Source: an uncultured Gammaproteobacteria bacterium (GTDB lineage Bacteria > Patescibacteriota > Patescibacteriia > UBA9934 > GWF2-40-263). From it: DNA of 64,000 bases. The position numbers were made by a program, and so were the translations under genes. The notes beneath the pieces were generated by a model. It saw only the letters and a program-made list of their open reading frames with translations, was not told where the DNA came from and searched no databases. Location of the stretch: positions 769-64,768 of the forward strand of contig CAZIDX010000004.1 in assembly GCA_964538435.1 (NCBI GenBank), given 5' to 3'. Of the stretch, positions 3,377 to 54,404 are shown piece after piece (the stretch's first letter is position 1; every line of letters begins with the position of its first letter).

Positions 3377-3433
3377 GTTTGGAAGGGGAATTGTAGGTTT
3401 TGTGAAGCTTGCACTCTTGACAAGTTCTCTGAT

Positions 3434-3463
3434 TTGAAGCAGTCAAGAATGCTACGATATTAT
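3434..3463 (+). promoter_or_regulatory. Putative sigma70 promoter (-35 ttgaag, -10 tattat) for the wHTH/Cas2-like gene
   Basis: Hexamers with 18-bp spacing ending ~30 bp before ATG 3495; repeat-A copy (3477-3494) lies between -10 and the start codon. Confidence 0.3.
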
Positions 3464-3476
3464 CATGGTCATTTAT

Positions 3477-3494
3477 ACGACGATCGACGGTTAT
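3477..3494. repeat. 18-bp direct repeat copy 1 (acgacgatcgacggttat), operator-like, abutting ATG of CDS 3495
   Basis: 16/18 identical to 4053..4070; contains CGATCG core. Confidence 0.5.
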
Positions 3495-4028
3495 ATGCCT
3501 AAGAAAGAATCAAGAAAACGTTCGATGAGTTTTTATTCAAGAGCTTCACAAATTTTGATGGGGATTTTTGAGTATGGAGATTTAGTAATTGAGAATATTC
3601 ATCAGCCAGGATTGGCTTTTCGATATGGGCTTGAGAACGCGATCGAGATTCGTGATTCTAAGGAAAAAGCTCTTCAAAAAAGAGAGCTTCGTCGGTTGGA
3701 AGAAAGGAGATTGGTGAAGATTGATAAAACTGCCAAGTTGTATGTTGTGCGTTTGAGTGATGATGGTTTATTGGAGGTTTTGAGGCAAAAAATTAACCAG
3801 GCATATCCATTACCAGACGGGAGGGATTGCATTGTGGTGTTTGATATTCCTGAGTCAAAAAGAAAGCTTAGGGATGGCTTGAGAAGGCTTTTAAAAGACG
3901 TCGGTTTTTTCTGTATTCAGAGAAGTGTTTGGATGTCTCCATTTGATGCTGGCGAGGCGTTCGCCGAGTTTTTTCGATTTGTTGGAAATGAAGACTGGGT
4001 TAGGGTATACACAGGGATAAGGCATTGA
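3495..4028 (+). CDS. Winged-helix (N-terminal) + Cas2/VapD-like (C-terminal) domain protein, PaaX-like architecture; putative regulator or toxin-like module
   Basis: ORF 3465..4028, ATG 3495 preferred; N-terminal 'RRLEERRLVKIDKTAKLYVVRLSDDG' helix+wing; C-terminal 'CIVVFDIPESKRKLRDGLRRLLKDVGFFCIQRSVWMSPFD' matches Cas2 beta1-alpha1-beta2 pattern. Confidence 0.5.
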   Translation: MPKKESRKRSMSFYSRASQILMGIFEYGDLVIENIHQPGLAFRYGLENAIEIRDSKEKALQKRELRRLEERRLVKIDKTAKLYVVRLSDDGLLEVLRQKINQAYPLPDGRDCIVVFDIPESKRKLRDGLRRLLKDVGFFCIQRSVWMSPFDAGEAFAEFFRFVGNEDWVRVYTGIRH

Positions 4029-4052
4029 GTTTTGAATTTTTGAGGCGCATAT

Positions 4053-4070
4053 GCGTCGATCGACGGTTAT
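4053..4070. repeat. 18-bp direct repeat copy 2 (gcgtcgatcgacggttat) containing 12-bp perfect palindrome cgtcgatcgacg, adjacent to 10-bp palindrome cgcatatgcg
   Basis: Direct comparison with 3477..3494. Confidence 0.5.
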
Positions 4071-4225
4071 GTGGTTGAGTTGGTTAATGTTTTGATTTAT
4101 GAAGATTAGTTGGTGAGGCTTTTGGTTTTGTGTTGACAGGGAGATGGGTGCAGGTTAATGTCTGAGAAATCGGAATTGGCATCCTGTGTGGGGTTCGGGA
4201 GTAACCCCGGGTGCGTGGAGTGGTT

Positions 4226-4417
4226 ATGGAACAGGTTGTGGTTTTCACGGCAGAAGACGAGAAGGTTGTCACGCTCGGTGAAAAGATCAGTGAGTGGCTC
4301 AGGACGCATCCGAATATCAGGATCACTGACAGGAAGCAGACCGAGTCGGCAGCCGGTAGTGAGTTGAGGAGAAGTCATTACGTGACGATCTCCATCTGGT
4401 ACATGGAGCCACTCTAG
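4226..4417 (+). CDS. Small hypothetical protein (63 aa)
   Basis: ORF 4211..4417; ATG 4226 (MEQVVVFTAEDEK...), purine-rich stretch upstream; followed by a strong terminator. Confidence 0.35.
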   Translation: MEQVVVFTAEDEKVVTLGEKISEWLRTHPNIRITDRKQTESAAGSELRRSHYVTISIWYMEPL

Positions 4418-4433
4418 GAAGAGTGATTCCACG

Positions 4434-4463
4434 AAGAGCTTTTGCTTCGGCAAAGCTCTTTTC
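4434..4463 (+). terminator. Intrinsic terminator (aagagcttt-loop-aaagctctt + TTTT) separating the small ORF from recG
   Basis: 9-bp perfect stem and T-run. Confidence 0.55.
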
Positions 4464-4489
4464 TAATTGATATGCTAAGATGCAATCGT

Positions 4490-6532
4490 ATGGCGATTCA
4501 CTTAACATCTTCTGTTTCTGAGCTTCCTGGAATCGGGGGAAAGGCTCTTGCGGCGCTTCGGTCGCTTGGGATTTCTTCTGTGCGAGACCTCTTATGGTAT
4601 GTGCCGTTTCGGTATGATGATTTTTCTGTTATTCGTGGAGCTGGTGAGGTGAAGGCTGGGGAGACTGTGACGGTGATTGGAGTAGTCCAATCGATTACGT
4701 CTCGGCCTGCGCAGAATCGTAAACTCAAGATTGTCGATGGGGTGATTGAGGATGAGACTGGGGAGCTTAAGGTGACTTGGTTTAATCAGGCCTATCTTGA
4801 GAAGACGCTTCCGCCTGGGACAAAGGTTGCGGTTGCTGGGCGCGTGGAAAATCGCTACGGGCTCTCGATGACCAGTCCGGTGATTGAGAAGAGAAAGGCA
4901 AGCGTGCACACTGGGCGCATTGTTCCAGTGTATGGCCTCACAGGTTCGCTTACGATGAGACGACTGCGCGATGCCATTCATGCTGCGCTCCCGGCTGCGA
5001 AGGAAATGACTGACTGGCTTCCTGAAGAGATTGCAAAGAAAGAAATTTTCCCGAGCTTGGCTGAGGCGATTCGGGCTGTGCATTTTCCTGAGACTCAGGC
5101 TGAGCTTACGTCTGCGATTGATCGCTTGAAGTTTGGTGAGCTGTTTTTGCATCAACTTATGTTTGCGCATGTGCGGCGTGAGCGAGAGAAAAAGTCTGCG
5201 CATTCGATTAGGCTTGATGAGGAGTTTTTGAAAGAGTTTGCTGCTGGTTTGCCGTTTGAGCTGACTAGCTCGCAGAAAAAAGCAATCTGGAGCACTGTGC
5301 AGGATACGGCTGGCAGTGAGCCAATGAATCGTTTGCTTGAGGGAGATGTTGGGTCTGGAAAAACAGTCGTGGCTGCGGCTGCGATTGCGAATGTGCTCAA
5401 GGGTGGGCTTACGGCCGTGTACCTTGCACCAACAGAGATTCTGGCCATGCAGCAGCATCAGGCGCTATCGAAGTTTTTGTCTGAGCCAGTGGGGCTTCTT
5501 ACACGCTCGCAGTCAAAGCTTGGGGAGGAAGAGATTGCAAAGACTGAGATCCTCGATCAGGCCAAGGGGCGATGCATTGTTGGAACGCATGCACTCCTTC
5601 AGGATAAAATTAAGATTGATGATGTCGCGCTTGTTGTGGTGGATGAGCAGCATCGTTTTGGTGTGGAGCAAAGGCATGCGCTACTTGAGACCGGAAACAA
5701 GCCATCGCCGCATCTTTTGTCAATGACAGCCACACCGATTCCGCGCTCACTATCACTTACAATTTTTGGAGACCTCGATCTGTCAGTACTCACTGAGATG
5801 CCGGTCGGGAGAAAGCCTGTAGCTACTGCGGTTGTTCCTCGAGCAGAGCAACAAGGAATGTGGACGCATGTGCTTGAGCAGGTCAAAGAGGATAGGCAAG
5901 TGTTTGTAGTGTGTCCGCTCATTGATCCATCAGACAAAATGGGAGCAAAGTCAGTAGCCGAGGTCGCACGCGAGCTTTCTAAAGGTCCTCTCAAGAGCCT
6001 CAAGATCGCGCAGCTTCATGGAAGGCTCAAAAGCGAGGAGAAGGAACAGGCGATCAAAAAGTTTCGCGATGGCAAGATCGACGTCCTTGTCTCTACAACG
6101 GTTGTTGAGGTAGGAGTGGATATTCCAAACGCGAGCGTGATGGTGATTGTTGGAGCAGATAGGTTTGGTTTGGCGCAACTGCATCAGCTTCGTGGGCGCG
6201 TTGGGCGTTCTGATATTCAGTCGTATTGTTATCTCTTGCCAGGGGAGGAGATGAGTGTGAATGGAGTGGAGAGGCTCAAAACCATGGAGGTAACCAACGA
6301 TGGGTTTAAGCTGGCAGAGAAAGATTTGGAGCTGCGTGGTCCAGGGAATATTTTTGGAAATGCGCAGTCAGGGTTTCCGGACTTTGTGCTGGCGACCGTG
6401 GCGGATGTGGAACTCATGTCCCGCGCGCGCGAGTGGTCAGGGAAGCTTCTTGGTGCTGATCCGGAGCTTGAGAGGCATCCTTTGATTAGGGATAGGGTAA
6501 AGAGGGAGTTTGATTCGGTTCATTTGGAATAA
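4490..6532 (+). CDS. recG: ATP-dependent DNA helicase RecG
   Basis: ORF 4442..6532; wedge domain, GSGKT Walker A, DEQHRFGV, TATPIPRSL, QLHGR, RGRVGR motifs; start 4472 or 4490. Confidence 0.9.
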   Translation: MAIHLTSSVSELPGIGGKALAALRSLGISSVRDLLWYVPFRYDDFSVIRGAGEVKAGETVTVIGVVQSITSRPAQNRKLKIVDGVIEDETGELKVTWFNQAYLEKTLPPGTKVAVAGRVENRYGLSMTSPVIEKRKASVHTGRIVPVYGLTGSLTMRRLRDAIHAALPAAKEMTDWLPEEIAKKEIFPSLAEAIRAVHFPETQAELTSAIDRLKFGELFLHQLMFAHVRREREKKSAHSIRLDEEFLKEFAAGLPFELTSSQKKAIWSTVQDTAGSEPMNRLLEGDVGSGKTVVAAAAIANVLKGGLTAVYLAPTEILAMQQHQALSKFLSEPVGLLTRSQSKLGEEEIAKTEILDQAKGRCIVGTHALLQDKIKIDDVALVVVDEQHRFGVEQRHALLETGNKPSPHLLSMTATPIPRSLSLTIFGDLDLSVLTEMPVGRKPVATAVVPRAEQQGMWTHVLEQVKEDRQVFVVCPLIDPSDKMGAKSVAEVARELSKGPLKSLKIAQLHGRLKSEEKEQAIKKFRDGKIDVLVSTTVVEVGVDIPNASVMVIVGADRFGLAQLHQLRGRVGRSDIQSYCYLLPGEEMSVNGVERLKTMEVTNDGFKLAEKDLELRGPGNIFGNAQSGFPDFVLATVADVELMSRAREWSGKLLGADPELERHPLIRDRVKREFDSVHLE

Positions 6533-6718
6533 GTTTCGCTTTCGCTCGAATTTTTCTACGGGAGCTTGGGGCGGCCACGAGGTCGTAGGTTAAAAACTCG
6601 CTGCAGATGTTTTTAACCTACGACCTCGAACGGCCGTTTGGCGTCCTGGGCCACTGGGTAGGGTGGTGTTACGACGCTTCGGCACATCGAGTGCCTCGCG
6701 TCGTCATCTTCATTGGGT
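6533..6718 (+). repeat. Family-1 structured interspersed repeat, copy 1 (two conserved hairpins: 6579-6627 and 6671-6704)
   Basis: Aligned by eye with 39821-40012 and 51311-51515; shared core 'ggggcggccacgaggtcgtaggttaaaaa...tttttaacctacgacctcgaacggccgtttggcgtcctgggcc'. Confidence 0.7.
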
Positions 6719-6730
6719 TCTGAGAAATGA

Positions 6731-6759
6731 TTGACACATAGTCCCAATAGGGCTATTCT
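6731..6759 (+). promoter_or_regulatory. sigma70-like promoter (-35 ttgaca, 17-bp spacer, -10 tattct) for NADAR gene
   Basis: Consensus -35, good spacing, GGAGGA RBS at 6768-6773. Confidence 0.45.
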
Positions 6760-6777: not shown

Positions 6778-7281
6778 ATGCCGATCGAGATTCCTGGTGC
6801 GATTACTTCTTTTCGAGGAAGCTACCGGTTCCTCTCCAACTTCTACGGGCACAAGCCTGAGCACATCAAGTTCACTGTGGTGGTGGATGGGGTGGAGTTT
6901 CACACGAGTGAACATGGGTTCATGGCTTCCAAGACGACTGACTTGGAGACCAGGCGACTGATCCAGGCTATGCCTGGTGCGATGCAGGCCAAGATGTACT
7001 GGCATGATGAGAGCAAACAGCACCTGCTCCGCGAGGACTGGGATGAGATCAGGCTCTCGACCATGTTGGACATGCTTCGTCAGAAGTTTGCTCATCCGAA
7101 GCTTCAGCAGATGCTGCTTGACACAGGTAACGTGATCTTGATCGAGGGCAACAACTGGGGGGATACGTTCTTCGGTGTCGATGAGGAGACTGGAGAAGGG
7201 GAGAGCTGGCTTGGGCGTTTGCTCATGATGGTTCGCACTGAGCGCGCTCTGGAGGAGTATCTCAAACGGGTCGCTGCGTAG
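6778..7281 (+). CDS. NADAR / YbiA-like (DUF1768) N-glycosidase family protein
   Basis: Motifs FLSNFY, EFHTSEHGFMASK, NNWGDTFFG; GC content visibly higher than flanks. Confidence 0.8.
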   Translation: MPIEIPGAITSFRGSYRFLSNFYGHKPEHIKFTVVVDGVEFHTSEHGFMASKTTDLETRRLIQAMPGAMQAKMYWHDESKQHLLREDWDEIRLSTMLDMLRQKFAHPKLQQMLLDTGNVILIEGNNWGDTFFGVDEETGEGESWLGRLLMMVRTERALEEYLKRVAA

Positions 7282-8741: not shown

Positions 8742-10064
8742 TTATCCTCCTGAGTCAGTACAGTATTTTAAGTAGATTTCAGCGGCTTTTGCTGCATAGT
8801 GAGCGGCTTGTGCTCCAGATCCGTTGTAGGCACACATGGCCATAGCAAGGTCGCCAGTTCGATCAAGTCGTTTTTTTACAAATGTTGCTTGAGCTCTGAG
8901 GGTGTTGCTAATACCTCCCCAGTTTGTTCCACCAGTTGAGAGTTTAGTGTCAAAGTACTCTGCACATGAGTCTAGTGCGACTTGGCAAGTCCAGCATACA
9001 GTGGTGTTACAATCTGGAAATTTTGTTGTGTCAGGCGGCCAGGTTGGGTCATAGGATTCATTGCAGTGCGCAGCAACTTGTTCTCCTCGTGTGTGGTCTC
9101 TGGACACTGTACGCACGCAACATTCTTGTCCAAGGGTTGATTCAAAAGATGTTGGCATGAACTGCGCAATCCCAATTTCCCCACATGGTCCACGCTGCGA
9201 GGAATCGTAGTCAATTGTTCCGCTTGTTTCAATCTGTAGATGAGTTGCAAGCTGGAAACGATCAGCTCCTGTTTCGTCTGCAATAGAGTTAACGACGGCG
9301 GTAAGCTCATCAGTCCAACCAGAAGGTTTTTTTAAAACAGTTGCAGAGCAGGCTTTGACCATCCCTTCGACTCCTTCACAGTTTTCAAGTGAGAATGATG
9401 TAAGCGCATCTTCTGCAATGTTGTCTAACGAGATTGTTCGAAGGCGGACAAGTTCGGGGTTCACTGTCCAAAGAATGAGCCAAGTGCTTGAAAGTAGGAT
9501 AAGGCCAATGACAGCGTTTTTGATGCGCTCCTTTGCTTTTGATGTATCTCCATATCCGCCAGCTGCAGCATACTGAAATCCTCCAATCATGACCATGACG
9601 ATTGCAGCAATGGTGGCTATTCCCAAAATGTACTTATAAGCTCCTGCGATGTAGGCACCCAAGAAGGCGATGTGCAGCACCTTACCATCGACCTCAATGG
9701 CATCTGACAGGTCTATGCCTGGGATTTCAACACTGAGGAGCGGGGTGATGGTTTGTGTGCTGTTGTTAGATACAGCTCCTGTGTTTCCAGGTGCGGTTGA
9801 GTAGCCAGAGTTTGTGCACGTTGTCTTACAATCCATGATGTGGCTTGTGCCATCTGGGCACGAGCAGCCAGCATCAGAGAGAATAGTGGCGCCGCTGTCT
9901 CCGCAGTCTGAAATACATTCGTCCGTTGCATCAACTGAGTGCGCAATATTATCTGAGTCATAACAAGTACAACCTCCAGCAGCAAGAGTGGTCAATGGGA
10001 AAAGGGCACTCAGTGTGAGTGTGGAAAGTGCTAGGAGGATTGAAATTCGTTTTGTTAGTTGCAT
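8742..10064 (-). CDS. Modular exported protein: signal peptide + Cys-rich domain + conserved membrane-hairpin module + lytic transglycosylase (SLT-like) domain
   Basis: Signal peptide; module '...IPGIDLSD...FLGAYIAGAYKYILGIATIAAIVMVMIGGFQYAAAGGYGDTSKAKERIKNAVIGLILLSSTWLILWTVNPELVRL'; SLT-like 'ETSGTIDYDSSQRGPCGEIGIAQFMPTSF'. Confidence 0.6.
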   Translation of the reverse strand: MQLTKRISILLALSTLTLSALFPLTTLAAGGCTCYDSDNIAHSVDATDECISDCGDSGATILSDAGCSCPDGTSHIMDCKTTCTNSGYSTAPGNTGAVSNNSTQTITPLLSVEIPGIDLSDAIEVDGKVLHIAFLGAYIAGAYKYILGIATIAAIVMVMIGGFQYAAAGGYGDTSKAKERIKNAVIGLILLSSTWLILWTVNPELVRLRTISLDNIAEDALTSFSLENCEGVEGMVKACSATVLKKPSGWTDELTAVVNSIADETGADRFQLATHLQIETSGTIDYDSSQRGPCGEIGIAQFMPTSFESTLGQECCVRTVSRDHTRGEQVAAHCNESYDPTWPPDTTKFPDCNTTVCWTCQVALDSCAEYFDTKLSTGGTNWGGISNTLRAQATFVKKRLDRTGDLAMAMCAYNGSGAQAAHYAAKAAEIYLKYCTDSGG

Positions 10065-11044
10065 GATCGAGACATTTTTGGATTTTCAAAATGCCAGGCT
10101 TCTGAGTCGAGCAGGCAAAAGCCCTGTGCTTTCATTGCTGAAATAAGAATGCTGTGCCCTGCATTTTTTCTGCATTTATCTACTGCAGGGTTGTTGTCGC
10201 ATTGTGCTTTTGTTACGCAGGGCGAGCCGCTGCATGTTGCCCACATATCGATAGCACGTCCAGTTGTGTGTGGACAGTTTTCTGCTTTTCCGTCTCGGAG
10301 CATGCAGGCGTAGGTAATCCCATCTTTTGGATCACATGTAGCAGAACCTGGTGGGTTGTTGCAGTATTTGAGAATCAGAGAAGTTTGTTTTTCAACGGTT
10401 CGAAAGCTTGAGGCAATGTAGATGCCATATCCTTGAGCATCTACTTGTGCTGCTGCCGCTTCAATCAAGGGAGCTAAGTCTTTTGGTACTTCATTCACTC
10501 CTGGACCTGTTATGTTTGCTGCAACAGGTGCTTGGAATTCAACTGCTACATTACCACCTGTAATGTTTTCTTCTGATCCAAGGGTTGCAAGGCTGATGTC
10601 GTCTACGACATCCACTTCAACAGGACCAAGGCGAACAAGTTCGGGGTTTACGGTCCAAAGTAGGAGATAGACAGATGCTAAGAGCACAAGACCTGTGATA
10701 GCGTCTTTTATTCTCTTCTTTGCTTTTGATGTTTCTCCATGTCCTCCAGCCAGCGCGTATTGAAGGCCGGCAATCATGATCATGACAATGGCAACAATAA
10801 CAGCTGCGTCAAGCAAGTAATCGTAGATGGCCGAGATGTAATCGGAAAGATAATTTACACTCATGACATTCCCTTTGATGCTGATTTCAGAAAGTTTGAG
10901 TCCGGGGATGTCTACGTTAAGAATAGGGGTCTGGGTTTTGACTGAGCTGGTGGTGGCGTGTGCAACAAGGGGGGAGACGAGAAAGAGTCCAGCGATGAGT
11001 TGGAGGAGGAGGCGTGCTGGTTTTGTGAGGAGAGTTTTTTTCAT
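10055..11044 (-). CDS. Modular exported protein: signal peptide + membrane-hairpin module + peptidase M15 (VanY/LAS-like) domain
   Basis: ORF 10055..11077, start MKKTLLTKP at 11044; shared module '...SDYISAIYDYLL...GLQYALAGGHGETSKAKKRIKDAITGLVLLASVYLLLWTVNPELVRL'; M15 motifs SSFRTVEKQ, HTTGRAIDMW, SEAWHFE. Confidence 0.6.
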   Translation of the reverse strand: MKKTLLTKPARLLLQLIAGLFLVSPLVAHATTSSVKTQTPILNVDIPGLKLSEISIKGNVMSVNYLSDYISAIYDYLLDAAVIVAIVMIMIAGLQYALAGGHGETSKAKKRIKDAITGLVLLASVYLLLWTVNPELVRLGPVEVDVVDDISLATLGSEENITGGNVAVEFQAPVAANITGPGVNEVPKDLAPLIEAAAAQVDAQGYGIYIASSFRTVEKQTSLILKYCNNPPGSATCDPKDGITYACMLRDGKAENCPHTTGRAIDMWATCSGSPCVTKAQCDNNPAVDKCRKNAGHSILISAMKAQGFCLLDSEAWHFENPKMSRSCN

Positions 11045-11045
11045 G

Positions 11046-12413
11046 TTAGTAATCCAGGCAGGCAAGTAGGTGACCACCCTTTGTTTTCCAGCTCATGTGT
11101 ACGTGTGGTCCAGAGGTGTTTCCTGACTGCTCTACAACTTGGCAGTCACAATTTTCAAGTTTGTTTGGGTCTGTGCATGGAGTTCCTTCGACATTGCACC
11201 ATCCGTATTTTGCTGTGGCCCATCCTGCAGGAGCTGTTTGTCCATCACAGCAGCGCCCACCAACATGCCCAATGATGTCTCCTTGTGAAACGGCCTGTCC
11301 AGCAAGAATAGCCCCAGAATCATTTACAAAATCTTTTGCGTGACAAATGGTTATGTAGGCTCCAGCAGCATCACCTGTTCCTTCAAGGTAAATTCGATTT
11401 CCACATTTGTTGTTTGTGTCTTCTTGCTTGGCGTAGGTGACAATACCATCAAAAGGTGCGTACACACTTGAACCCCAACCTGCTCCCCAGTCCAGGTGTC
11501 TGATTTTTTTGTAATCACCGTTTGCTCCGTAGTCAAACCAGTGGTGGTTTCCGCAGGATGGTTGAGCGCCGCCCACGGGGGAAGTAACGCTTTGCGCGAT
11601 TTTGCACTCACCATGATCTTTTGCCTTTGCAACAATAGCATCGCATGTTGGGCGGGGGAGGGATCCGAATTTTGCCCCCTCAAAGCCTCTTGTTGCCATA
11701 TCGAGCTCGAGCTCGTCGACTTCTGTAAGGCGGATGGCGTCAAAAAATGTCGTGTTTGGATTTACGACCCACAAGATAAAGTACACGAAGAAGAGGAGGA
11801 CTAGTCCGATTACAGCGTCTTTTATCCTCTTTTTTGCTTTTCCAGTTTCTCCGTGACCTCCAGCAAAGGCGTATTGCAGACCGCCAATCATGATAATGAC
11901 AATTGAAATGATTGCAGCAATACTCAGAAGATATGTATAGACACCTGTGATGTATTCACCAAGCCAGTTGATTTCCATTTCTTCACCATCTGTGACGATT
12001 CTTGAAAAGTAGACACCTGGAATTTCGACCTCGAGTTCTGGTTCGATGTAGCCTTTTTCTGCATATTCAATATCAGATTTTTTTTGCGTTGTGTAACTAG
12101 CGTTTTCAGCAATGCACACCGCAGTGCAATCAAGTTCAGGCAATTCTCCAGTGGCTGGGCAGTTGCAAATACCCGCGTTTGTTTCCATGGCGTCATCATC
12201 GTTGCAGTCGATGATACATTGGGCCGTACCGCTTACGATTACGAGTTTGTCGCCATCGTAGCATTCACAGGCAAGAGCTTGCGTACAAACAAAAAACACC
12301 CCCATTACTACAGACAGGAATGAAAAAAGACACACGAACTTGAGTCTAAACTTAGTGTTGAGAACGTGTGTCATAACAGGAGAATTATTGAAGGGCAGTG
12401 AGTTGCTCTGCAA
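11046..12413 (-). CDS. Modular exported protein: signal peptide + Cys-rich domain + membrane-hairpin module + peptidase M23 (LytM-like) domain
   Basis: Shared module '...GEYITGVYTYLL...GLQYAFAGGHGETGKAKKRIKDAVIGLVLLFFVYFILWVVNPN'; M23 motifs HLDWGAGWGSSVYAPFDG, ICHAKDF, GDIIGHVGG, SGPHVHMSW; start 12413 or 12374. Confidence 0.6.
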   Translation of the reverse strand: MQSNSLPFNNSPVMTHVLNTKFRLKFVCLFSFLSVVMGVFFVCTQALACECYDGDKLVIVSGTAQCIIDCNDDDAMETNAGICNCPATGELPELDCTAVCIAENASYTTQKKSDIEYAEKGYIEPELEVEIPGVYFSRIVTDGEEMEINWLGEYITGVYTYLLSIAAIISIVIIMIGGLQYAFAGGHGETGKAKKRIKDAVIGLVLLFFVYFILWVVNPNTTFFDAIRLTEVDELELDMATRGFEGAKFGSLPRPTCDAIVAKAKDHGECKIAQSVTSPVGGAQPSCGNHHWFDYGANGDYKKIRHLDWGAGWGSSVYAPFDGIVTYAKQEDTNNKCGNRIYLEGTGDAAGAYITICHAKDFVNDSGAILAGQAVSQGDIIGHVGGRCCDGQTAPAGWATAKYGWCNVEGTPCTDPNKLENCDCQVVEQSGNTSGPHVHMSWKTKGGHLLACLDY

Positions 12414-13038
12414 CGATATCTAGAAGATCAGCTGCATCAAGAGCGCCAACGTGGATTTCGTCGTTGATGAACATGGTTGGTGTGGCTGTAAGCCCTAGTC
12501 CCATGGCTTCCTCAAAATCTTTTTTCACGATTGGGAGTGTGTCGCGTGTATCAAAACAGTTTTGGAATTTTTCAGTATCAAGTTCCAGGTCGGATGCGAT
12601 TTGAGAGAAGGTGGAGTCGCTCAGGAAAGATTGTCTGTTAAACAGTTCGTCATGGTAAGCCCAGAACGCATCTTGCCGGTCTGCGCAATGTGCGGCAATG
12701 GCAGCAGGAGTGGCTTGCGCATGAATAGATTCGTTTGGAAGATCTTTCCACACAATGCGCACATCCGTTGGGTGGGCTGTCATCACAGACACAAGATTTT
12801 CTGCGAGTTCACCACATGCATGGCATTGGAAATCACTATAGACAATGATGGAGACGCTTGCGGTATCGCTTCCCAAAGATGGGTTGATAAATGTCACGCT
12901 TGGCTCAGTTACTTCTTCGTAGGATGCCATGATCTCCTCCCGATCAACTTCGATGGGTTGCAGCCGGTACCAGAAAAAAATCATTACCATTACGGTGAGA
13001 AAAGCGATTGTTAAAAATGTGAGCCATTTATGAGACAT
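12385..13038 (-). CDS. DsbA-like membrane-anchored thiol:disulfide oxidoreductase
   Basis: N-terminal TM, CHAC active-site motif in thioredoxin fold. Confidence 0.65.
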   Translation of the reverse strand: MSHKWLTFLTIAFLTVMVMIFFWYRLQPIEVDREEIMASYEEVTEPSVTFINPSLGSDTASVSIIVYSDFQCHACGELAENLVSVMTAHPTDVRIVWKDLPNESIHAQATPAAIAAHCADRQDAFWAYHDELFNRQSFLSDSTFSQIASDLELDTEKFQNCFDTRDTLPIVKKDFEEAMGLGLTATPTMFINDEIHVGALDAADLLDIVAEQLTALQ

Positions 13039-22061: not shown

Positions 22062-22157
22062 GTGAGTTTGCTGCATGAGAACAGCGCGAGGCGGAGCCGG
22101 GCCGTCTCGCAGGATAGACGACCACCACCTCGCACTGTTCTCATGCAGCAAACTCAC
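22062..22157. repeat. Family-2 element, site 1: 30-bp near-perfect palindrome arms (gtgagtttgctgcatgagaacagcgcgagg / cctcgcactgttctcatgcagcaaactcac) enclosing conserved core
   Basis: Core 'ggcggagccgggccgtctcgcaggatagacgaccaccacctc' shared with 37303-37346; arms unrelated between sites. Confidence 0.65.
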
Positions 22158-22238
22158 ATGGTGATTGACGTTCTCTGTGGTTTGGGGTGGGTGTTGTCTT
22201 GCTAAATATGTTTGAAAACGTTATCATTTAGCTGATTT

Positions 22239-26821: not shown

Positions 26822-27246
26822 TGTGGAATTGGGAATCGGGAATCGGGAATTGAGAATATTAGTTCAGGATCAGAAATAAAGTCATTTCAAGATTTGGTTG
26901 TATGGCAAGAAGGCCACAAACTTGTAGTGAAGACCTATCAAATTACAAAAGTTTTTCCACCTGAAGAGCGATACGGCTTGTCAAATCAAATGCGGAGAGC
27001 TGCTGTTTCTATCACTTCAAATATTGCGGAAGGTTTTGGGAGGTTTACATATAAAGAAAAAATTCGATTCTATTCATTGTCGCACGGATCACTGACAGAG
27101 CTGCAAAATCATTTCTTGATTTCAAAAGATGTTGGTTTTCTTCAAGAGGGGGAACTGGATGAAATTTGGAATCAAACAATTCGTGTCAAGAAATTACTTA
27201 ACGGTCTTATCAGGTCTTCAAAAATGAGAATCTAATATTCTCAATT
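26822..27246. mobile_element. IR-flanked cassette: heptamer tandem repeat (gggaat[ct])x4 + perfect 15-bp inverted repeats (26848-26862 aattgagaatattag / 27232-27246 ctaatattctcaatt) enclosing a four-helix-bundle gene
   Basis: Perfect reverse-complement 15-mers flanking ORF; right IR overlaps stop codon; no transposase. Confidence 0.45.
26894..27235 (+). CDS. Four-helix-bundle protein of the 23S rRNA intervening-sequence (IVS) protein family
   Basis: 'FQDLVVWQEGHKLVVKTYQITKVFPPEERYGLSNQMRRAAVSITSNIAEGFGRFTYKEKIRFYSLSHGSLTELQNHFLIS' matches family signature; TTG start, frame open back to pheT stop. Confidence 0.7.
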   Translation: MVVWQEGHKLVVKTYQITKVFPPEERYGLSNQMRRAAVSITSNIAEGFGRFTYKEKIRFYSLSHGSLTELQNHFLISKDVGFLQEGELDEIWNQTIRVKKLLNGLIRSSKMRI

Positions 27247-36582: not shown

Positions 36583-36683
36583 ATATGTTGTTTTGTTAAA
36601 GAAATTGTAAAAAGTTAGCCCGCACAGGGGCTTTAAATTCTTTTAAAATATAGCAGAAAAAGGGGGTTTTGTCAATCAAGCTG

Positions 36684-36711
36684 TTGACAAACTTTGAGAT
36701 TTGCGTATACT
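36684..36711 (+). promoter_or_regulatory. sigma70-like promoter (-35 ttgaca within inverted repeat ttgtcaa/ttgacaa; -10 tatact)
   Basis: 16-bp spacer; GGAGG RBS 36725-36729; ATG 36735. Confidence 0.45.
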
Positions 36712-36734
36712 CAAAAGCTGCTATGGAGGCCAAC

Positions 36735-37229
36735 ATGGGAACGATTCACCCTTTTGCCGCGCATGATGCGCGAATCAATCGGGTGTGCCACAGCGCGCTC
36801 CCGAACCATTACCACGTTGCTGAGTTCATCGCTCAGACATTGCGTGATCACGACGGTTCTGTCTTGGTGGCGAGGATGCTCTGCGAGCATCTGACGCGCT
36901 ACGAGTACACTCGTGAAGCATCAGAAGAGCGTGTTCAGGCGTTTGCACCCATGGTGGGCAACGATGCTCTTCGTATGCGTGTGTGCCTGCACATGTCCCA
37001 GAACGATGGGCGGAATGTGGACGCTGCTGACGCGTATGAGGCTGCGTTGGCGAATTGCGCTGAGAACTACTGGTACATGGAAAGTGAGAACAAGGTCTGG
37101 AGTTCGCGGCGTAAGCTCGCGATCAAGAACGGCAAGTTCACGACCGCGTTCTTCGCTTCCATCCTTCACACGGCCTTTGCGATGCTCTCGGATACACCGA
37201 TTGAGCTCGTAGAGACGGCTGCGGTCTGA
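36735..37229 (+). CDS. Hypothetical protein (GC-rich cargo gene)
   Basis: ORF 36669..37229; RBS-supported ATG at 36735; noticeably higher GC than neighbours. Confidence 0.5.
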   Translation: MGTIHPFAAHDARINRVCHSALPNHYHVAEFIAQTLRDHDGSVLVARMLCEHLTRYEYTREASEERVQAFAPMVGNDALRMRVCLHMSQNDGRNVDAADAYEAALANCAENYWYMESENKVWSSRRKLAIKNGKFTTAFFASILHTAFAMLSDTPIELVETAAV

Positions 37230-37278: not shown

Positions 37279-37370
37279 GTTGCTGTGTGTGATTTCATTC
37301 ATTCGGCGGAGCCGGGCCGTCTCGCTAGATAGACGACCACCACCTCATGAATGAAATCACACACAGCAAC
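37279..37370. repeat. Family-2 element, site 2: perfect 24-bp palindrome arms (gttgctgtgtgtgatttcattcat / atgaatgaaatcacacacagcaac) enclosing conserved core 37303-37346
   Basis: Core identical to site 1 except 2 nt (cgcAGgat vs cgcTAgat). Confidence 0.65.
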
Positions 37371-39797: not shown

Positions 39798-39820
39798 ATC
39801 TTTCCTTTCCTTTACCTTTA

Positions 39821-40012
39821 ATTGGTTTCGCTTTCGCTCGGATCTCGCTGCGGGGGCTTGGGGCGGCCACGAGGTCGTGATTTAAAAATTCGTTGTAAAT
39901 TTTTTTAAACCACGACCTCGAACGGCCGTTTGGCGTCCTGGGCCTATAGGTGGGGTGGTGGGGGCTGCGACCTGTCAGGCCGTCGAGGCCTTCAGGTCGC
40001 CATCTCCATGGA
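39821..40012 (+). repeat. Family-1 structured interspersed repeat, copy 2 (hairpins 39867-39919 and 39967-40000)
   Basis: Alignment with copies 1 and 3; preceded by CT-rich tract 39800-39820. Confidence 0.7.
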
Positions 40013-40034
40013 GGATGAGCTTTAGAAAATCAAC

Positions 40035-40062
40035 AGCCCCCGGATCCTGCGTGGATTCGGGG
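40035..40062 (-). terminator. Terminator of pentapeptide-repeat gene (agcccccg...cgggggct hairpin; U-run on minus)
   Basis: 8-bp GC stem followed on minus strand by ttgattttct. Confidence 0.5.
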
Positions 40063-40080
40063 GCTTGTCGTTGGTGTTGG

Positions 40081-40851
40081 TCAGTCGTTGATGACCTTCA
40101 CCGCGGCCTGGGTCGCTCCGGAGAGGTCGAGGCCTGTGCAATTGACGAACTTCACAGCCTGCAGTGTCGCTCCGTGGAATCGGGCTCCAGTCAGATCGCA
40201 CTCCATGAACTTGGCGGCCATGATGACTGTGTTGGTGAAGTCAGCGTTGCGGAAGTCCTCACTGATGTGCTTGACGCTCATCATGTCCTGGCCGCTGAAG
40301 TCTTGACCTTGGGGCTGCTCATCTTCGTCCGGGGCAATGTACTCGCCTTCGTGGATGATCTGTGTGGGCAGGTTGGGGTTAGGCTGATCCTGGTTCTCCT
40401 CGGTAGAGGCTTGGAGCATTTCGTTCATGGTGTAGAAGACACGACCTTCGACCTCGTGGATGTTGGAGTCGGTGAGGTCGGCGTTGTCGACGAGGAGCAG
40501 GTCAGCGCTCAAGGGCAGCATTGTACCGATGAGGCTGGCTCCAGTGAGTTTGATTCCTTCGAAGGTGGTTTTGGACAGGTCACATCCATCCAGATTCGCG
40601 TGGGACAACAGGTTGGAGTCGAAGATGGCTCCATCCAGGTTGGCTCCGCGCAGGTCGGCGTTGCGCAAGATCATTCCGCTGAAGTTTTGCTCGCGCAGAT
40701 CTGTGCCTCGCAGGTCCAGGTGGGTGTAGAACTTGTGGTTGCACGCGGGACATACATGACCCGTCTCTCCGAGATGTGTGTTGTGCAGATCTGCTTCTGC
40801 CAGGGATCCACAATCGGGGCAAGGGGTGTTGGTGGACAGCAGGTCGCTCAT
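40081..40851 (-). CDS. Zinc-ribbon + pentapeptide-repeat protein (GC-rich cargo gene)
   Basis: CPDC...CPAC N-terminus; tandem A(D/N)LxG pentapeptide repeats; GGAAGGA RBS; ORF 39955..40893(+) is its shadow. Confidence 0.7.
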   Translation of the reverse strand: MSDLLSTNTPCPDCGSLAEADLHNTHLGETGHVCPACNHKFYTHLDLRGTDLREQNFSGMILRNADLRGANLDGAIFDSNLLSHANLDGCDLSKTTFEGIKLTGASLIGTMLPLSADLLLVDNADLTDSNIHEVEGRVFYTMNEMLQASTEENQDQPNPNLPTQIIHEGEYIAPDEDEQPQGQDFSGQDMMSVKHISEDFRNADFTNTVIMAAKFMECDLTGARFHGATLQAVKFVNCTGLDLSGATQAAVKVIND

Positions 40852-40981
40852 CTGGTTTCCTTCCTATCCGAGAGTGAATTCTCGCGGATTTGAGCGATGT
40901 GTTCCAAGTGGCTGTTCCTGTGCCACATTCGTTCGATACAGCCGATTGCACAATGCAATCTGATAGCCGTATAAGAGAGCC

Positions 40982-41010
40982 AGAATAGCACAAAATAGCC
41001 GTTTTGTCAA
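40982..41010 (-). promoter_or_regulatory. sigma70-like promoter on minus strand (TTGACAAAA -35, 17-bp spacer, TATTCT -10) with ~150-nt leader containing palindrome gattgca-ttg-tgcaatc
   Basis: Read from reverse complement; same architecture as five other promoters in window. Confidence 0.45.
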
Positions 41011-41032
41011 GGGTTTTACGTGTTTTTGAATC

Positions 41033-51237: not shown

Positions 51238-51243
51238 GAAACA

Positions 51244-51268
51244 AGCAGTGCAAACGCACTGCTTTTTT
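51244..51268 (+). terminator. Intrinsic terminator (agcagtgc-aaac-gcactgct + T6)
   Basis: Perfect 8-bp stem + T-run. Confidence 0.6.
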
Positions 51269-51310
51269 GATTGTATTCTTTTCCTCCTTCCTTTTCCTCC
51301 CTTCCTTTTT

Positions 51311-51515
51311 AATTGGTTTCGCCTTCGCTCGAACCTTGCTCGGATCTTGCTGCGGGGGTTTGGGGCGGCCACGAGGTCGTAGGTTAAAAACTCGCAGTAA
51401 ATGTTTTTAAACTACGACCTCGAATGGCCGTTTGGCGTCCTGGGCCTATAGGTGGGGTGGTGGGGCTCTGCGACGTGTCGGCACGTCGAGTGCCTCACGT
51501 CGCCATTTCCACGGG
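51311..51515 (+). repeat. Family-1 structured interspersed repeat, copy 3 (hairpins 51370-51422 and 51470-51503), preceded by CT-rich tract 51283-51308
   Basis: Alignment with copies 1 and 2. Confidence 0.7.
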
Positions 51516-51592
51516 GGATTCGGTTGTGTAAACAAAGAAGCACCCGGAGACGAGCTGCGGGTGCAACTTGTCTCGCGGGTGCGAGAGGGGGG

Positions 51593-51668
51593 TGGGGCCG
51601 GCTGCGGGACTCGAACCCGGAATCTGCTGATTACAAATCAGCTGCTCTACCAATTGAGCTAAGCCGGC
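51593..51668 (-). tRNA. tRNA-Thr (anticodon UGU)
   Basis: RC gives GCCGGCT acceptor, D-arm GCTCAATTGGTAGAGC, anticodon stem GCTGA/TCAGC loop TTTGTAA, T-arm CCGGGTTCGAGTCCCGG, CCA; hairpin+U-run downstream on minus. Confidence 0.85.
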
Positions 51669-51683: not shown

Positions 51684-53198
51684 CTACCTCACATCCTTCA
51701 TGATGGGGGTGAAGTAGACAGCCACGACCCGGGGGGTCAGGTAGTGCCCGTCGACTCGGTACAGGACCAGGTCACCCTCGGAGGGGAAGTACCGGTGGTG
51801 TCCGCGCGCCTGCACCATCTTGAGGTGGCCGTGATGGACCAGCATCTGGGTGCCGCCCTTGGGGTGGCGACCTTGCTCGATCGTGCCGTACCAGTAGCCA
51901 GCTTGGTCGAGCCGGTACTCGAGGCTGTCCTCGAGCTGGGGGTGGCTCAGGCCCAAGCGCCTCCAGGCGATGAATGCCGTGGAGATGGTGTTTTCCGTGA
52001 GGGTCGGGGCGACCACTTCGCGGAAGAAGGCTTCACCTTCGCCCTCCAGATCTACCACGAGGCGGAGCAGGAATGAGAACGTGTGCCGTGTCGCGTAGTG
52101 AGGAGTGTGGGCCAGGTCCAGGCGCTTGGCCAGGGCCTTGCGAGTTCTTGCGTCCAGGCGCTTGAGCTCATCCTCGGGGATGCGGTCGAGGCTCTCGAGT
52201 CCCAGGATGGCCTGGGCGATGTGGGCGTCCACGGCCGCGCTGGGCAGTCGACGCTCCATCTGGACCCGTGCACCCATGAGCTTGTTCGGTGCCTTGGATC
52301 CGCAGATGGCCAGGGCGATGGACAGCTCCTGGTTGGTGAGCATGTCCCAGGGCTTGAAGTCGCCGAAGCAGTAGTGCCACTTCTCGGTCTCGGTGTACTT
52401 GCGCAGGTTCATGGTGAACGGCTCGTTCTGATGCGTGTAGCCGTCACCAGCCTTGAGCGAGGTCAGGCATGCGAGTACTTCCTGGTGGATCAGGTCGAAC
52501 CCGTGGGTGGGATCGGACAGGATGCGGTTGTAGAGGTCGCTTCCGCGGCTGACTGCGATTCCGAGGGAGTGCAGGGTGCTGCGGATGGGGGCGCTGTGGC
52601 GGTCGCCGATGCCGTACTCGATGAAGTCGTGCACATCGTTGGCCATGCCATGCCGAACCTGGGTGCGGCGCAGGCGCTCGATGATGGCCTGGGCGATCAC
52701 CTGACGGGTGACACCAGCCATGATGGCAGCATTGATCCAGCCGTTGTTCCACGAGCCGAAGCGCGGGTACAGCTCGTGGATGAACCGCTCGCGCCACTGG
52801 GGCGAGAGCAGGGTCAGGAGCTCTGCGGACTGGATGAAGCCCTGGAAGAACCAGTGCGGTAGGGACAGGAGCGGGGACTCGAAGTCCGTCTGCGCGGCCT
52901 TCTGCTCGCATGCGGTGTCGTACGCGTGCAGTGCGGCCTGCATGAACAGGTCTGCGTCCCCCACGATTTCGGTGAACTTGGTCGGGTTGGCCATGATCCA
53001 GGGCATGCCTGCAGACTGCGGGATCACTTCGTATCCACAGTCATCGACCAGGAGTGCGAAGCTGAGCATGTCCTCGGGCTTGGCCGTGCCGTCTTCGATC
53101 TTCGCCAGGATGGCGTCACGGGCTGCGTTCAGGCGGTCGTAGGACTCGCCGCGGCCACTGATCCACTGGTGGGTCACGTTCTGGGTCTCGATCTGCAT
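51684..53198 (-). CDS. Hypothetical protein (504 aa from RBS-supported start), first gene of GC-rich island
   Basis: ORF 51684..53276; ATG at 53198 preceded by GGAGGA; ~60% GC by eye. Confidence 0.5.
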   Translation of the reverse strand: MQIETQNVTHQWISGRGESYDRLNAARDAILAKIEDGTAKPEDMLSFALLVDDCGYEVIPQSAGMPWIMANPTKFTEIVGDADLFMQAALHAYDTACEQKAAQTDFESPLLSLPHWFFQGFIQSAELLTLLSPQWRERFIHELYPRFGSWNNGWINAAIMAGVTRQVIAQAIIERLRRTQVRHGMANDVHDFIEYGIGDRHSAPIRSTLHSLGIAVSRGSDLYNRILSDPTHGFDLIHQEVLACLTSLKAGDGYTHQNEPFTMNLRKYTETEKWHYCFGDFKPWDMLTNQELSIALAICGSKAPNKLMGARVQMERRLPSAAVDAHIAQAILGLESLDRIPEDELKRLDARTRKALAKRLDLAHTPHYATRHTFSFLLRLVVDLEGEGEAFFREVVAPTLTENTISTAFIAWRRLGLSHPQLEDSLEYRLDQAGYWYGTIEQGRHPKGGTQMLVHHGHLKMVQARGHHRYFPSEGDLVLYRVDGHYLTPRVVAVYFTPIMKDVR

Positions 53199-53330
53199 TT
53201 GTCTTCCTCCGATCGGGTGTCTTTCTTTGACATTGCCGAGTGAGGTCTTTCTGGGAACCGCCCAGAACGGAGCCAAAAGGCTTGTAGGAATGAAAGGAGC
53301 ATGCGCACATTTGTTGTGCGCGAACGGAGA

Positions 53331-53359
53331 AATATATCATAAAATAGGTGTTTTGTCAA
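53331..53359 (-). promoter_or_regulatory. Minus-strand promoter TTGACAAAA-N17-TATATT
   Basis: Reverse complement of 53331-53359. Confidence 0.45.
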
Positions 53360-53452
53360 TCCATTTAGACAAAAAGTAGGTCTATAATAGTCATTTTTGT
53401 AAAAGTGACTCAAAACTCTCACCATGGTGAGGTTTTTGAAACCTTTGAAATT

Positions 53453-53477
53453 GAAAAGATCCGCTTTGTTGCGGATC
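53453..53477 (-). terminator. Terminator (gatccgc-tttgtt-gcggatc; U-run on minus) overlapping stop of CDS 53477..54322
   Basis: 7-bp stem; A-run 53454-53457 on plus. Confidence 0.45.
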
Positions 53478-54322
53478 TAGAGGCTCAGGCCGGGTTTGGT
53501 TGAGCATTCGTAGAGAAAGCCTTCGTAGGCCTGGTTGACGAGTTGTATCCAGCCGCCATCGCGGGGGATGCGGCTGAGGTCTGGCATTGGATTTGTTTTT
53601 ACACGTCGAGGGCGTACGTGGGTGTGTGCGACGATTTGGAGTCGGAGTTTGTCCGGTCTTTGAGGGTCGCGATCCATGATGCGAGCTGTGATCAGCAGAA
53701 GTCTCATCTCAACGCCGATGACCGCACCTTCTGGTCCGTAGACTTCGGTGGCGGCGTAGATTGCTCCGTGTGCGGCTTTGGTTGAGTAGAGTCGCTTGCT
53801 TGGAGCGAAGTTGCCATGCTCGTCCTGGTTGATGATTGCGATCGGGTCCAGGGGACTGGTGTTTCGTTTGCACCAGACCGCGTAGCAGTCGCGCAGACCG
53901 TTGTTGAACGAGTCTGGGAGTTGTAGCTCGCGTTCGTCTGTGGTGCGGTGTCGCCTGTTGTACTGCCGGCGTCCGCTGCTCAGGATCGAGACAAGATAGG
54001 CTTTTGCACGCTCTCGCTCGGCTTTCTCACAAATGTGATGCCAAGCGAGTCTGTCTGCTGAGCGCATGGAAGCAATGCCATGCTGGAGCAGGTTCGTGCT
54101 TGTAGAGTTTTTCCACTGGCCCGGGATCGTGACATAGTGCCGGTCACGTCCCATTTTAGGTTGAATCAGCTCAGCCGAGGGGGTCTTGGTTGTCTGACAC
54201 AGTTCAAGATGTTTGCGTGCAGCAGCTTCGGAGTCGAATCCGAGTGCGGGTGTGATCAGGGACGTTGTGTCCTGTGTGCTCATCAGTCCAGGAAAAGGCG
54301 CAGTCATTGCATCCTCGTACAT
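53477..54322 (-). CDS. Hypothetical protein (281 aa), GC-rich island
   Basis: ORF; own promoter and terminator. Confidence 0.5.
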   Translation of the reverse strand: MYEDAMTAPFPGLMSTQDTTSLITPALGFDSEAAARKHLELCQTTKTPSAELIQPKMGRDRHYVTIPGQWKNSTSTNLLQHGIASMRSADRLAWHHICEKAERERAKAYLVSILSSGRRQYNRRHRTTDERELQLPDSFNNGLRDCYAVWCKRNTSPLDPIAIINQDEHGNFAPSKRLYSTKAAHGAIYAATEVYGPEGAVIGVEMRLLLITARIMDRDPQRPDKLRLQIVAHTHVRPRRVKTNPMPDLSRIPRDGGWIQLVNQAYEGFLYECSTKPGLSL

Positions 54323-54345
54323 TGGGCGTCATCGCCGGGAGCTGG

Positions 54346-54374
54346 AATTTACTGGACAGAGCGTGTTTTGTCAA
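54346..54374 (-). promoter_or_regulatory. Minus-strand promoter TTGACAAAA-N17-TAAATT
   Basis: Reverse complement of 54346-54374. Confidence 0.4.
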
Positions 54375-54404
54375 TCAAAAAGCAGCTCTTGTGAGCTCCT
54401 TTGT

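Follow-up and report, generated by a model that had tools for sequence, protein, structure and literature searches.

Family-1 is a non-coding element of about 200 bp (200-250 bp overall) that is present in three copies, at positions 6533-6718, 39821-40012, and 51311-51515, on the plus strand of the 64-kb stretch of bacterial DNA analyzed here (hereafter, the window). The best MiaA and RecG matches of the window are from Candidatus Uhrbacteria, which belong to the Patescibacteria, or candidate phyla radiation (CPR). Judged from the sequence comparisons, Family-1 is a real, selected, and previously undescribed repeat that lies outside every known family tested. Our tentative reading, to which we assign a probability of roughly 40%, is that Family-1 is a lineage-restricted, orientation-specific, hairpin-bearing repeat resembling the REP/REPIN elements, the single-stranded form of which would be recognized by a trans-acting protein, and which would be co-transcribed in some 3' untranslated regions (3' UTRs).

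The alignments show that the copies are inserted immediately behind genes, past either the stop codon or the terminator, at spots that also take accessory genes. They also show that two predicted hairpins preserve their Watson-Crick pairing, loop, and bulges despite freely varying stem sequences, and that one copy has been kept at its site behind recG since before two species split.

Copies and conserved structure of Family-1

The original prediction, which was made from the window alone, had placed three copies on the same strand. All three were indeed found on the plus strand at these coordinates, and they are homologous to one another with pairwise identities of 75-82%. Since the identities are only this high, the copies are not assembly duplicates, a possibility that the prediction itself had raised. 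A hidden Markov model (HMM) searched with nhmmer and a covariance model (model R1), both built from the copies, gave exactly three matches in the window, with no partial or fragmentary copies. The 21-mer GGCCGTTTGGCGTCCTGGGCC occurs three times in the window, against 0.00 expected (shuffled sequences gave none), and the GC content of the element is 56-58%, as compared to 48% for the window. Short-read Logan contigs from two samples, that of the window and that of its closest relative, end inside a Family-1 element, as is typical of repeats in de Bruijn assemblies; one of them, L001, stops within copy 2. The components of the three copies are as follows.

6533-6718, plus strand: Family-1 copy 1 (covariance model, 232 bits over 6524-6721)
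6578-6628, plus strand: hairpin 1 of copy 1, a perfect 20-bp stem with an 11-nt loop
6628-6668, plus strand: core GAACGGCCGTTTGGCGTCCTGGGCC of copy 1, followed by the G tract GGGTAGGGTGGTG
6671-6704, plus strand: hairpin 2 of copy 1, ACGACGC-TTC-GGCAC-ATCGA-GTGCC-TC-GCGTCGT
39798-39820, plus strand: polypyrimidine (CT) tract of copy 2, which aligns with that of copy 3
39821-40012, plus strand: Family-1 copy 2 (248 bits over 39816-40017)
39870-39920, plus strand: hairpin 1 of copy 2, with the mid-stem GTGAT where GTAGG is found otherwise
39967-40000, plus strand: hairpin 2 of copy 2, GCGACCTG-TC-AGGCC-GTCGA-GGCCT-T-CAGGTCGC
51276-51310, plus strand: polypyrimidine (CT) tract of copy 3, which aligns with that of copy 2
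51311-51515, plus strand: Family-1 copy 3 (242 bits over 51307-51520)
51372-51422, plus strand: hairpin 1 of copy 3, a 20-bp stem with one G.A mismatch
51470-51503, plus strand: hairpin 2 of copy 3, GCGACGTG-TC-GGCAC-GTCGA-GTGCC-T-CACGTCGC
51593-51668, minus strand: tRNA-Thr (TGT) gene, convergent, beyond copy 3

Hairpin 1 is extended by a further helix, which in copy 1 is formed by CGGCC (6572-6576) and GGCCG (6632-6636) and is generally a GGCC helix of 5-6 bp. The two compensated pairs that had been predicted for copy 2 were observed, but this copy also contains one A.C and one U.U mismatch that the prediction had left out. For hairpin 2, the two-tier stems around an RTCGA loop are exactly as predicted, and 6 of the 13 pairs carry double-sided changes among the three copies, with the loop and the bulges kept. 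Taking both hairpins together, 8 of the 39 pairs changed on both sides and none on one side only. The two hairpins have no sequence in common. They fold as single-stranded DNA equally well on either strand. Fold-energy z-scores for Family-1 range from -4.4 to -5.9.

The block between the hairpins, GAA(C/T)GGCCGTTTGGCGTCCTGGGCC, is shared by the three copies. It had been described as invariant, which holds for the GGCCGTTTGGCGTCCTGGGCC part but not for the fourth base, which is T in copy 3. A G-rich tract follows the core, as predicted, with a corrected reading of GGTAGGGTGGTG for copy 1. Overall, the conserved core comprises about 40 nt, is non-palindromic, and reads TTGGGGCGGCCACGAG ... CTCGAACGGCCGTTTGGCGTCCTGG ... 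GGTGGGGTGGTG. Copy 3 additionally carries an 11-nt internal tandem duplication, CTCGAACCTTG.

According to Pfam, the genes upstream of copies 1, 2, and 3 encode RecG, MiaA (IPPT), and a dCMP/cytidine-deaminase-domain protein, respectively. The suggestion that each copy lies directly downstream of a plus-strand gene holds for copies 1 and 2 but not for copy 3, where an intrinsic terminator (51243-51264) intervenes. Copy 1 starts 1 nt past the recG stop codon and ends about 12 nt ahead of the -35 box of the NADAR gene promoter (6731-6759). Copy 2 sits between the miaA stop codon and the terminator (40035-40068) of a convergent pentapeptide-repeat gene, and copy 3 is bounded by two terminators, the intrinsic one of its upstream gene and a terminator-like hairpin of the convergent tRNA-Thr gene. 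The CT tracts reported ahead of copies 2 and 3 are both present, beginning at the miaA stop codon and just past the T-run of the deaminase-gene terminator, respectively; copy 1 lacks such a tract. A terminal pairing between the CT tract and the 3' tail (GGAGGA/GGGGGA) was predicted for copies 2 and 3, but was rejected as a defining feature, as the tract is missing in copy 1 and in the orthologous copy described below.

Conservation and distribution among relatives

The closest available relative is represented by an NCBI contig locus of GCA_900089805.1 (L078), 22 kb of which were examined. Its RecG is 88% identical to that of the window, and the DNA is approximately 80% identical. This locus contains two members of the family.

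L078 12088-12291: orthologous Family-1 copy (model R1, 176 bits)
L078 12850-13085: second, decayed Family-1 member, behind NADAR

The orthologous copy sits exactly between the recG stop codon and NADAR, the same junction as that occupied by copy 1. Third-codon-position identities between the window and L078 are 0.59 for recG and 0.72 for NADAR. By comparison, copy 1 and its ortholog are identical at 21 of 21 positions in core columns 120-140 and at 16 of 16 in TTGGGGCGGCCACGAG. The stems are 60% and the loop 50% identical between the orthologs, and both hairpins are still perfectly paired. In the alignment of all four sequences, 14 of the 39 hairpin pairs show double-sided Watson-Crick changes and none shows a one-sided change, with 96.8% of the cells paired. 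This statistic was reached by none of 500 shuffles, and registers slid along the alignment pair at only 32-43%. All 18 of the changed hairpin cells are Watson-Crick and none is G.U; A.C accounts for two of the five mismatches.

With neutral identity at about 59%, these results support the proposal of the original prediction that the pairing-preserving variation reflects selection on structure. They also indicate that the core sequence and the hairpin pairing are maintained across a speciation event, and that Family-1 is more than a recent selfish insertion. A caveat is that template switching in DNA palindromes can yield apparently compensatory changes without selection. In the middle of the hairpin 1 stem, seven of eight consecutive pairs were replaced between the orthologs (GTCGTAGG to ACATTCAT, the complementary arm likewise); because this exceeds the neutral expectation of about 40%, it looks like the replacement of a block rather than stepwise compensation. 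In addition, the paralogs within the window (75-82%) are more alike than the orthologs (68%), which suggests concerted evolution or turnover.

In the second member in L078, the core is mutated (CCGTTTGGTGATCTGG) and the long nested hairpin is an unrelated one; a CT tract, the G tract, and an CATTTCTAT tail are present, and a bidirectional terminator hairpin occupies the place of hairpin 2. The L078 NADAR gene is thereby flanked by two family members in direct orientation. This second member suggests that the architecture of the family is fixed, that its hairpins are exchangeable, and that copies can decay. In the public annotation of L078, the NADAR gene (12171-12842, 223 aa) begins within the Family-1 element; by comparison with the window, the true start codon is probably the ATG at about 12345.

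Family-1 was found only in the genome of the window and in L078, and is missing from about 1.1 Mb of more distantly related DNA. No match was obtained in 67 loci from related species, syntenic around thyA and comprising about 1.0 Mb, which were searched with the HMM, the covariance model, and a fuzzy version of the core. Scans for exact 21-mers from the two longest conserved blocks gave no matches in 185,579 species genomes or in the IMG/VR viral contigs, and a single chance match, inside a high-GC coding region, in the JGI metagenomes. The element had no blastn match in phage and plasmid collections. In line with the original prediction, which had failed to match the element to several known RNAs, there is no match to Rfam: at gathering thresholds, Rfam 15 identified only two tRNAs in the whole window, and permissive scans of copies 2 and 3 and of both L078 copies yielded nothing beyond generic matches to miRNA hairpins, with scores far below threshold. 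When a profile of the open frame that spans the element was compared with 1.84 billion protein representatives, only low-complexity matches were obtained. A literature search found no report of a dispersed structured repeat in CPR/Patescibacteria genomes.

More distant relatives display the sites without the element. Gene order between miaB and rplA (ribosomal protein L1) is conserved. In relatives with 78-80% MiaA identity, miaA runs directly into a bidirectional terminator, beyond which lies gatB. In the window, this ancestral miaA/gatB terminator still adjoins gatB, on the far side of the inserted block. The inserted block, composed of the CT tract, the element, the terminator, and the pentapeptide gene, thus occupies the interval from the miaA stop codon to the old terminator. 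In relatives with 73-77% RecG identity, recG abuts radA, with neither NADAR nor the element. In one JGI relative, the gap in the deaminase-dcd slot is 78 bp, a homologue of p530, the gene to the right of copy 3, is present, and there is no room for the element. On the evidence of these loci, the copies are insertions relative to the more distant relatives.

The absence of an open reading frame (ORF) and of terminal inverted repeats, also part of the original prediction, was confirmed: six-frame translation gave no long unbroken frame through Family-1, and an inverted-repeat search gave only the internal hairpins. The two ends of the element, TTTCGCTTTCGC... and ...CATYTCCAYGG, show no complementarity. 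The three copies are not flanked by any consistent direct repeat, the relatives with empty sites being too diverged for comparison at the level of bases. No transposase, RAYT, integrase, or reverse transcriptase was found among the 52 window ORFs scanned with Pfam or in the gene table of the 22 kb of L078. Copies 2 and 3 have no sigma-70-like promoter, and the only such site near copy 1 is downstream of it and serves NADAR. The organism uses canonical TTGACA-N17-TATAAT promoters.

A number of known types of element were considered and rejected. An intrinsic terminator was rejected because the terminator scan was silent at hairpins 1 and 2, whose tails (CATCTTC, CATCTCC, and CATTTCC) lack a U tract, and an independent small RNA gene because copies 2 and 3 have neither a promoter of their own nor a U-tract terminator. 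A miniature inverted-repeat transposable element (MITE) was rejected because Family-1 lacks terminal inverted repeats, and an IS200/IS605-type end pair (PATE) because the hairpins share no sequence. REP/REPIN membership in the strict sense was also rejected, as the hairpin 1 arms are not palindromic, the element is 200 nt long with a non-palindromic core, and there is no RAYT in the available DNA. The sequence TTGAT lies upstream of all three copies, as would an ISDra2-like target, but at copy 2 it forms part of the native miaA coding sequence, and the pentamer is very common, with 221 occurrences in the window. For an integron attC site, the AAC/GTT of hairpin 1 would have to be at the base of the stem, whereas they adjoin the loop, and hairpin 2 is only 34 nt long, as compared to 57-141 nt for attC sites; this assessment was made by reading the sequence. 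A remnant of a group II (class C) intron was not supported, since the Rfam group II families were unmatched even at E<=10, and hairpin 2 departs from the domain V/VI consensus: it lacks the AGC triad, its loop is a pentaloop instead of GNRA, and it is bulged on both sides rather than on the 3' side. A template or variable repeat of a diversity-generating retroelement (DGR) was rejected because the copies do not differ specifically at adenines and there is no reverse transcriptase, and 6S RNA because there is no Rfam match. Finally, GGTGGTGG was considered as a Chi/KOPS-like G tract; it is skewed 11:2 toward the plus strand, but so are G/T-rich words generally.

Genomic surroundings and rival readings

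The genes to the right of the copies differ in composition from the housekeeping genes, whose GC content at third codon positions (GC3) is 0.40-0.50.

6778-7281: NADAR gene, right of copy 1, GC3 0.71
40081-40851: pentapeptide-repeat gene, right of copy 2, GC3 0.74
51684-53276: p530, right of copy 3, GC3 0.85
53477-54322: further gene right of the copies, GC3 0.62

The pentapeptide gene and tRNA-Thr are missing from all of the syntenic relatives examined, and for the hypothetical proteins p530 and p281, a match was detectable in none of the twelve closest syntenic GTDB loci. The high GC3 of these neighbors and the empty sites suggest that the copies lie at the left edge of variable, probably acquired blocks. 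The element could take part in gene acquisition; equally, the element and the accessory genes could both gather in a few permissive intergenic sites. The latter is favored because a homologue of p530 occurs without the element in a relative. Homologues of p530 are limited to three distant ones, and the one locus among them with readable DNA (L076) lacks the element. The homologue in the JGI relative, which occupies the same slot, is 49% identical. No counterpart of the tRNA-Thr gene (51593-51668, minus strand) was found when seven syntenic relatives were scanned for tRNAs. As estimated from its length, the Logan contig with the neighboring gene appears to end near or within tRNA-Thr, which would suggest that all or part of tRNA-Thr also occurs at another place in the genome.

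The plus strand exhibits a strong and uniform asymmetry over the whole window (GC skew +0.08 to +0.28, T>A), with genes on both strands, and thus appears to be the leading strand throughout. All of the Family-1 copies are co-oriented on this G-rich strand, and because every copy lies there, their orientation relative to genes is confounded with that relative to replication.

For the REP/REPIN-like repeat that we favor, the element would be read single-stranded on the G-rich strand, which would be the template for lagging-strand synthesis as well as the sense strand of the upstream transcript. The reader would be a sequence- and shape-specific protein encoded elsewhere, such as an HUH/RAYT-like nuclease, and would copy or maintain the element. 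Copies ahead of a terminator would ride passively in the 3' UTR of the upstream mRNA, where their hairpins would slow 3' exonucleases. Dispersal is suggested by the three diverged copies in 64 kb, the contig breaks in two samples, and the empty sites. Single-stranded DNA, or templated copying of the arms, is consistent with the hairpin changes being exclusively Watson-Crick and the stems being replaced as blocks, and half of the loci (copy 3 and the second L078 copy) lie behind terminators. Several observations weigh against this reading. No transposase, RAYT, or integrase was found in the window (64 kb) or in L078 (22 kb), and Family-1 has neither terminal inverted repeats nor a convincing target-site duplication. 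Its two hairpins are unlike each other and unlike the ends of IS200/IS605 elements, it is far larger than a REP, and only five family members were examined. Furthermore, an RNA function at the level of the host would also be compatible with a core and pairing that are conserved at a single orthologous locus.

Such a function is the most serious of the alternatives, and we regard it as possible: Family-1 would be a structured plus-strand RNA module in, or processed from, the 3' UTR of the upstream gene, with the core binding a protein or RNA and the hairpins acting as a scaffold or an exonuclease block. The element follows the orientation of the upstream gene at four of four independent loci (recG, miaA, the deaminase gene, and L078 NADAR), although, as noted above, this is confounded with the orientation of replication. 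Three copies begin 0-3 nt past a stop codon, whereas copy 3 and the second L078 copy lie behind strong intrinsic terminators. The ortholog keeps its core and pairing against a neutral identity of about 59%, and the fold-energy z-scores (-4.4 to -5.9) are low; the hairpin variation, however, never involves G.U, hairpin 2 is not followed by a U tract, and copies 2 and 3 lack a sigma-70 promoter in an organism that uses canonical ones. Two long-range helices are predicted on the plus strand only, with the pairing kept through G-C/G-U/A-U changes and one double change, but they are not significant, being reached by 115 of 500 shuffles, as expected by chance in a G+T-rich strand. The original prediction had left the choice between an RNA and a DNA hairpin open, and the data decisively favor neither, except that a small RNA gene and a terminator are counted against by the lack of a promoter and of a U tract.

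It is doubtful that Family-1 represents a mechanistically new class specific to a CPR lineage, in which the 40-nt core would be the functional site, the block-replaced stems would serve as specificity or addressing modules, and the element could partner, as a strand-specific RNA or single-stranded DNA, with an undescribed nuclease or recombinase by which accessory genes are captured or positioned behind housekeeping genes. Improbable, too, is a recombination anchor or cassette boundary, that is, an element marking one end of horizontally acquired blocks as a recombinase site or as one-sided homology for illegitimate recombination. Such an anchor would account for the very high GC3 of the gene to the right of every copy, the elevated GC content of the element itself (56-58% vs 48%), the restriction of the pentapeptide gene and tRNA-Thr relative to syntenic relatives and of p530 and p281 relative to the twelve closest GTDB loci, the joint absence of NADAR and the element from the relatives with 73-77% RecG identity, the retention of the ancestral miaA/gatB terminator beyond the inserted block, and the position of L078 NADAR between two direct-orientation family members. 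On the other hand, the p530 homologue occupies the same slot in a relative without room for the element, recombinases are missing from the vicinity, the opposite ends of the blocks in the window carry no family member, and the element was not found in any collection of potential donors; co-location would also be expected if a compact genome has few permissive intergenic sites and both simply collect there. Least probable, and in our view very unlikely, is a decaying palindromic repeat without selection on structure, the changes of which would result from quasipalindrome template switching or gene conversion between copies. The perfectly Watson-Crick stem changes without intermediates, the replacement of seven of eight consecutive mid-stem pairs in hairpin 1 (vs about 40% under neutrality), and the greater similarity of the paralogs (75-82%) than of the orthologs (68%) are consistent with it. 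In contrast, the non-palindromic core is identical at 21 of 21 and 16 of 16 positions against a neutral identity of about 59%, which template switching cannot explain; the RTCGA loop and the hairpin 2 bulges are conserved while the stems vary, and the decayed L078 copy illustrates the outcome of decay without constraint.

The genomes of CPR/Patescibacteria are small and densely packed with genes. In the present case, two species have retained a non-coding element of 200 nt at a single locus. The invariant core and compensated hairpins, as compared to largely randomized neutral sites, provide direct evidence of function or active maintenance under strong streamlining. If Family-1 is REP-like, an unrecognized trans-acting nuclease system in CPR bacteria would be implied; if it is an RNA, it would be a candidate for a new non-coding RNA family. 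Its position beside compositionally foreign genes could bear on how CPR bacteria acquire DNA. In practical terms, short-read assemblies break at the element, and gene callers spuriously extend the N termini of ORFs through it, as seen for NADAR in L078.

Other structured elements were observed in the window. A second repeat family is present at 22062-22159 and 37279-37370, with a 42-nt core, GGCGGAGCCGGGCCGTCTCGC(A/T)(G/A)GATAGACGACCACCACCTC, that is 95% identical between the two copies and flanked by a perfect 23-24-bp inverted repeat, the arms of which are wholly different between the copies. If Family-1 is the doubtful new CPR class described above, this family, with its unrelated arms, may use the same logic. 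Its second copy adjoins a high-GC3 gene (36669-37229, GC3 0.66), and the 3' arm of this copy contains the ATG of the predicted miaB ORF, the first 20-40 residues of which have no counterpart in relatives. An 18-mer of the second family gave only three chance matches in viral contigs. At 1400-1653, there is a structured non-coding insertion of about 255 bp that is missing in L078 (compare L078 8125-8150), where the empty site reads tttttgTAT|TGACAAA. In the window, TAT is found at both ends of the insertion and may represent a 3-bp target duplication. The insertion contains a hairpin with 27-bp arms (1483-1597), two direct copies of GGAAACCCCG.ATGGAG, and GGCGGAGTCCGGGG, which resembles the start of the core of the second family.

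Among the remaining genes, a segment at 3386-4472 with a small PaaX_M/Cas2-like gene (3465-4028, 40% GC) is missing in L078, where its flanks are adjacent. A low-GC (37%) gene at 26894-27235 belongs to the 23S-rRNA-intervening-sequence-protein family, the fold family of the DGR Avd proteins, with no reverse transcriptase nearby. Three tandem paralogs with a type IV secretion system (T4SS) pilin domain, one of which also has a peptidase M23 domain, are found at 8742-12413 and explain a 161-nt direct-repeat family, D1. Canonical sigma-70 promoters for minus-strand genes are located at 36646-36677, 40981-41012, 53330-53361, and 54345-54376. On the plus strand, their motif reads ...TATAWT-N17-TGTCAA, and on the gene strand, GATTGACAAAAC...TATATT, with shared sequence extending beyond the two hexamers.

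Comparison with known repeats and recombination sites

Integron attC sites, including solitary ones, are similar to Family-1 in that they are structured single-stranded recombination sites beside accessory genes, with extrahelical bases and a structure that is conserved more than the stem sequence. In contrast, Family-1 has no R''/R' boxes (RYYYAAC/GTTRRRY) at the hairpin base, differs in size and architecture, and is dispersed behind housekeeping genes rather than arrayed, and no IntI was seen.

The MITE-like repeats (Correia/NEMIS, RUP, ERIC, bcr1, and the Rickettsia RPE) are likewise multi-copy, intergenic elements of 100-250 bp with strong predicted structure and insertion polymorphism between relatives, and they also break short-read assemblies. 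They have terminal inverted repeats and defined target-site duplications, whereas Family-1 detectably has neither and lies in one orientation throughout.

For the IS200/IS605-derived PATEs, the similarities are the lack of inverted repeats and of a clear target duplication, hairpins that are read on one DNA strand (as proposed for Family-1), an expected co-orientation with replication, and a 3' hairpin that lies 12-18 nt away from the terminus. In IS200/IS605 elements, the hairpins at the left and right ends resemble each other, whereas those of Family-1 do not; no TnpA/TnpB was seen, and no conserved 4-5-nt target was established for Family-1.

The REP, REPIN, and BIME elements of Proteobacteria, which are mobilized by RAYT, an HUH Y1 nuclease, differ from Family-1 in size and architecture. 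REPs comprise 20-40 nt and REPINs about 100 nt, both being derived from two inverted REPs, whereas Family-1 comprises 200-250 nt and combines two dissimilar hairpins with a non-palindromic core of 40 nt, a G tract, and, optionally, a CT tract on the 5' side, with neither a GTAG-type motif identified nor a RAYT seen in the available DNA. Nevertheless, both are non-coding, intergenic, and dispersed, usually just downstream of genes; both have hairpins with conserved unpaired bases and no terminal inverted repeats; and, like Family-1 behind recG, the REP-type elements persist at orthologous sites. They are also co-transcribed in 3' UTRs, as would be the Family-1 copies that precede a terminator.

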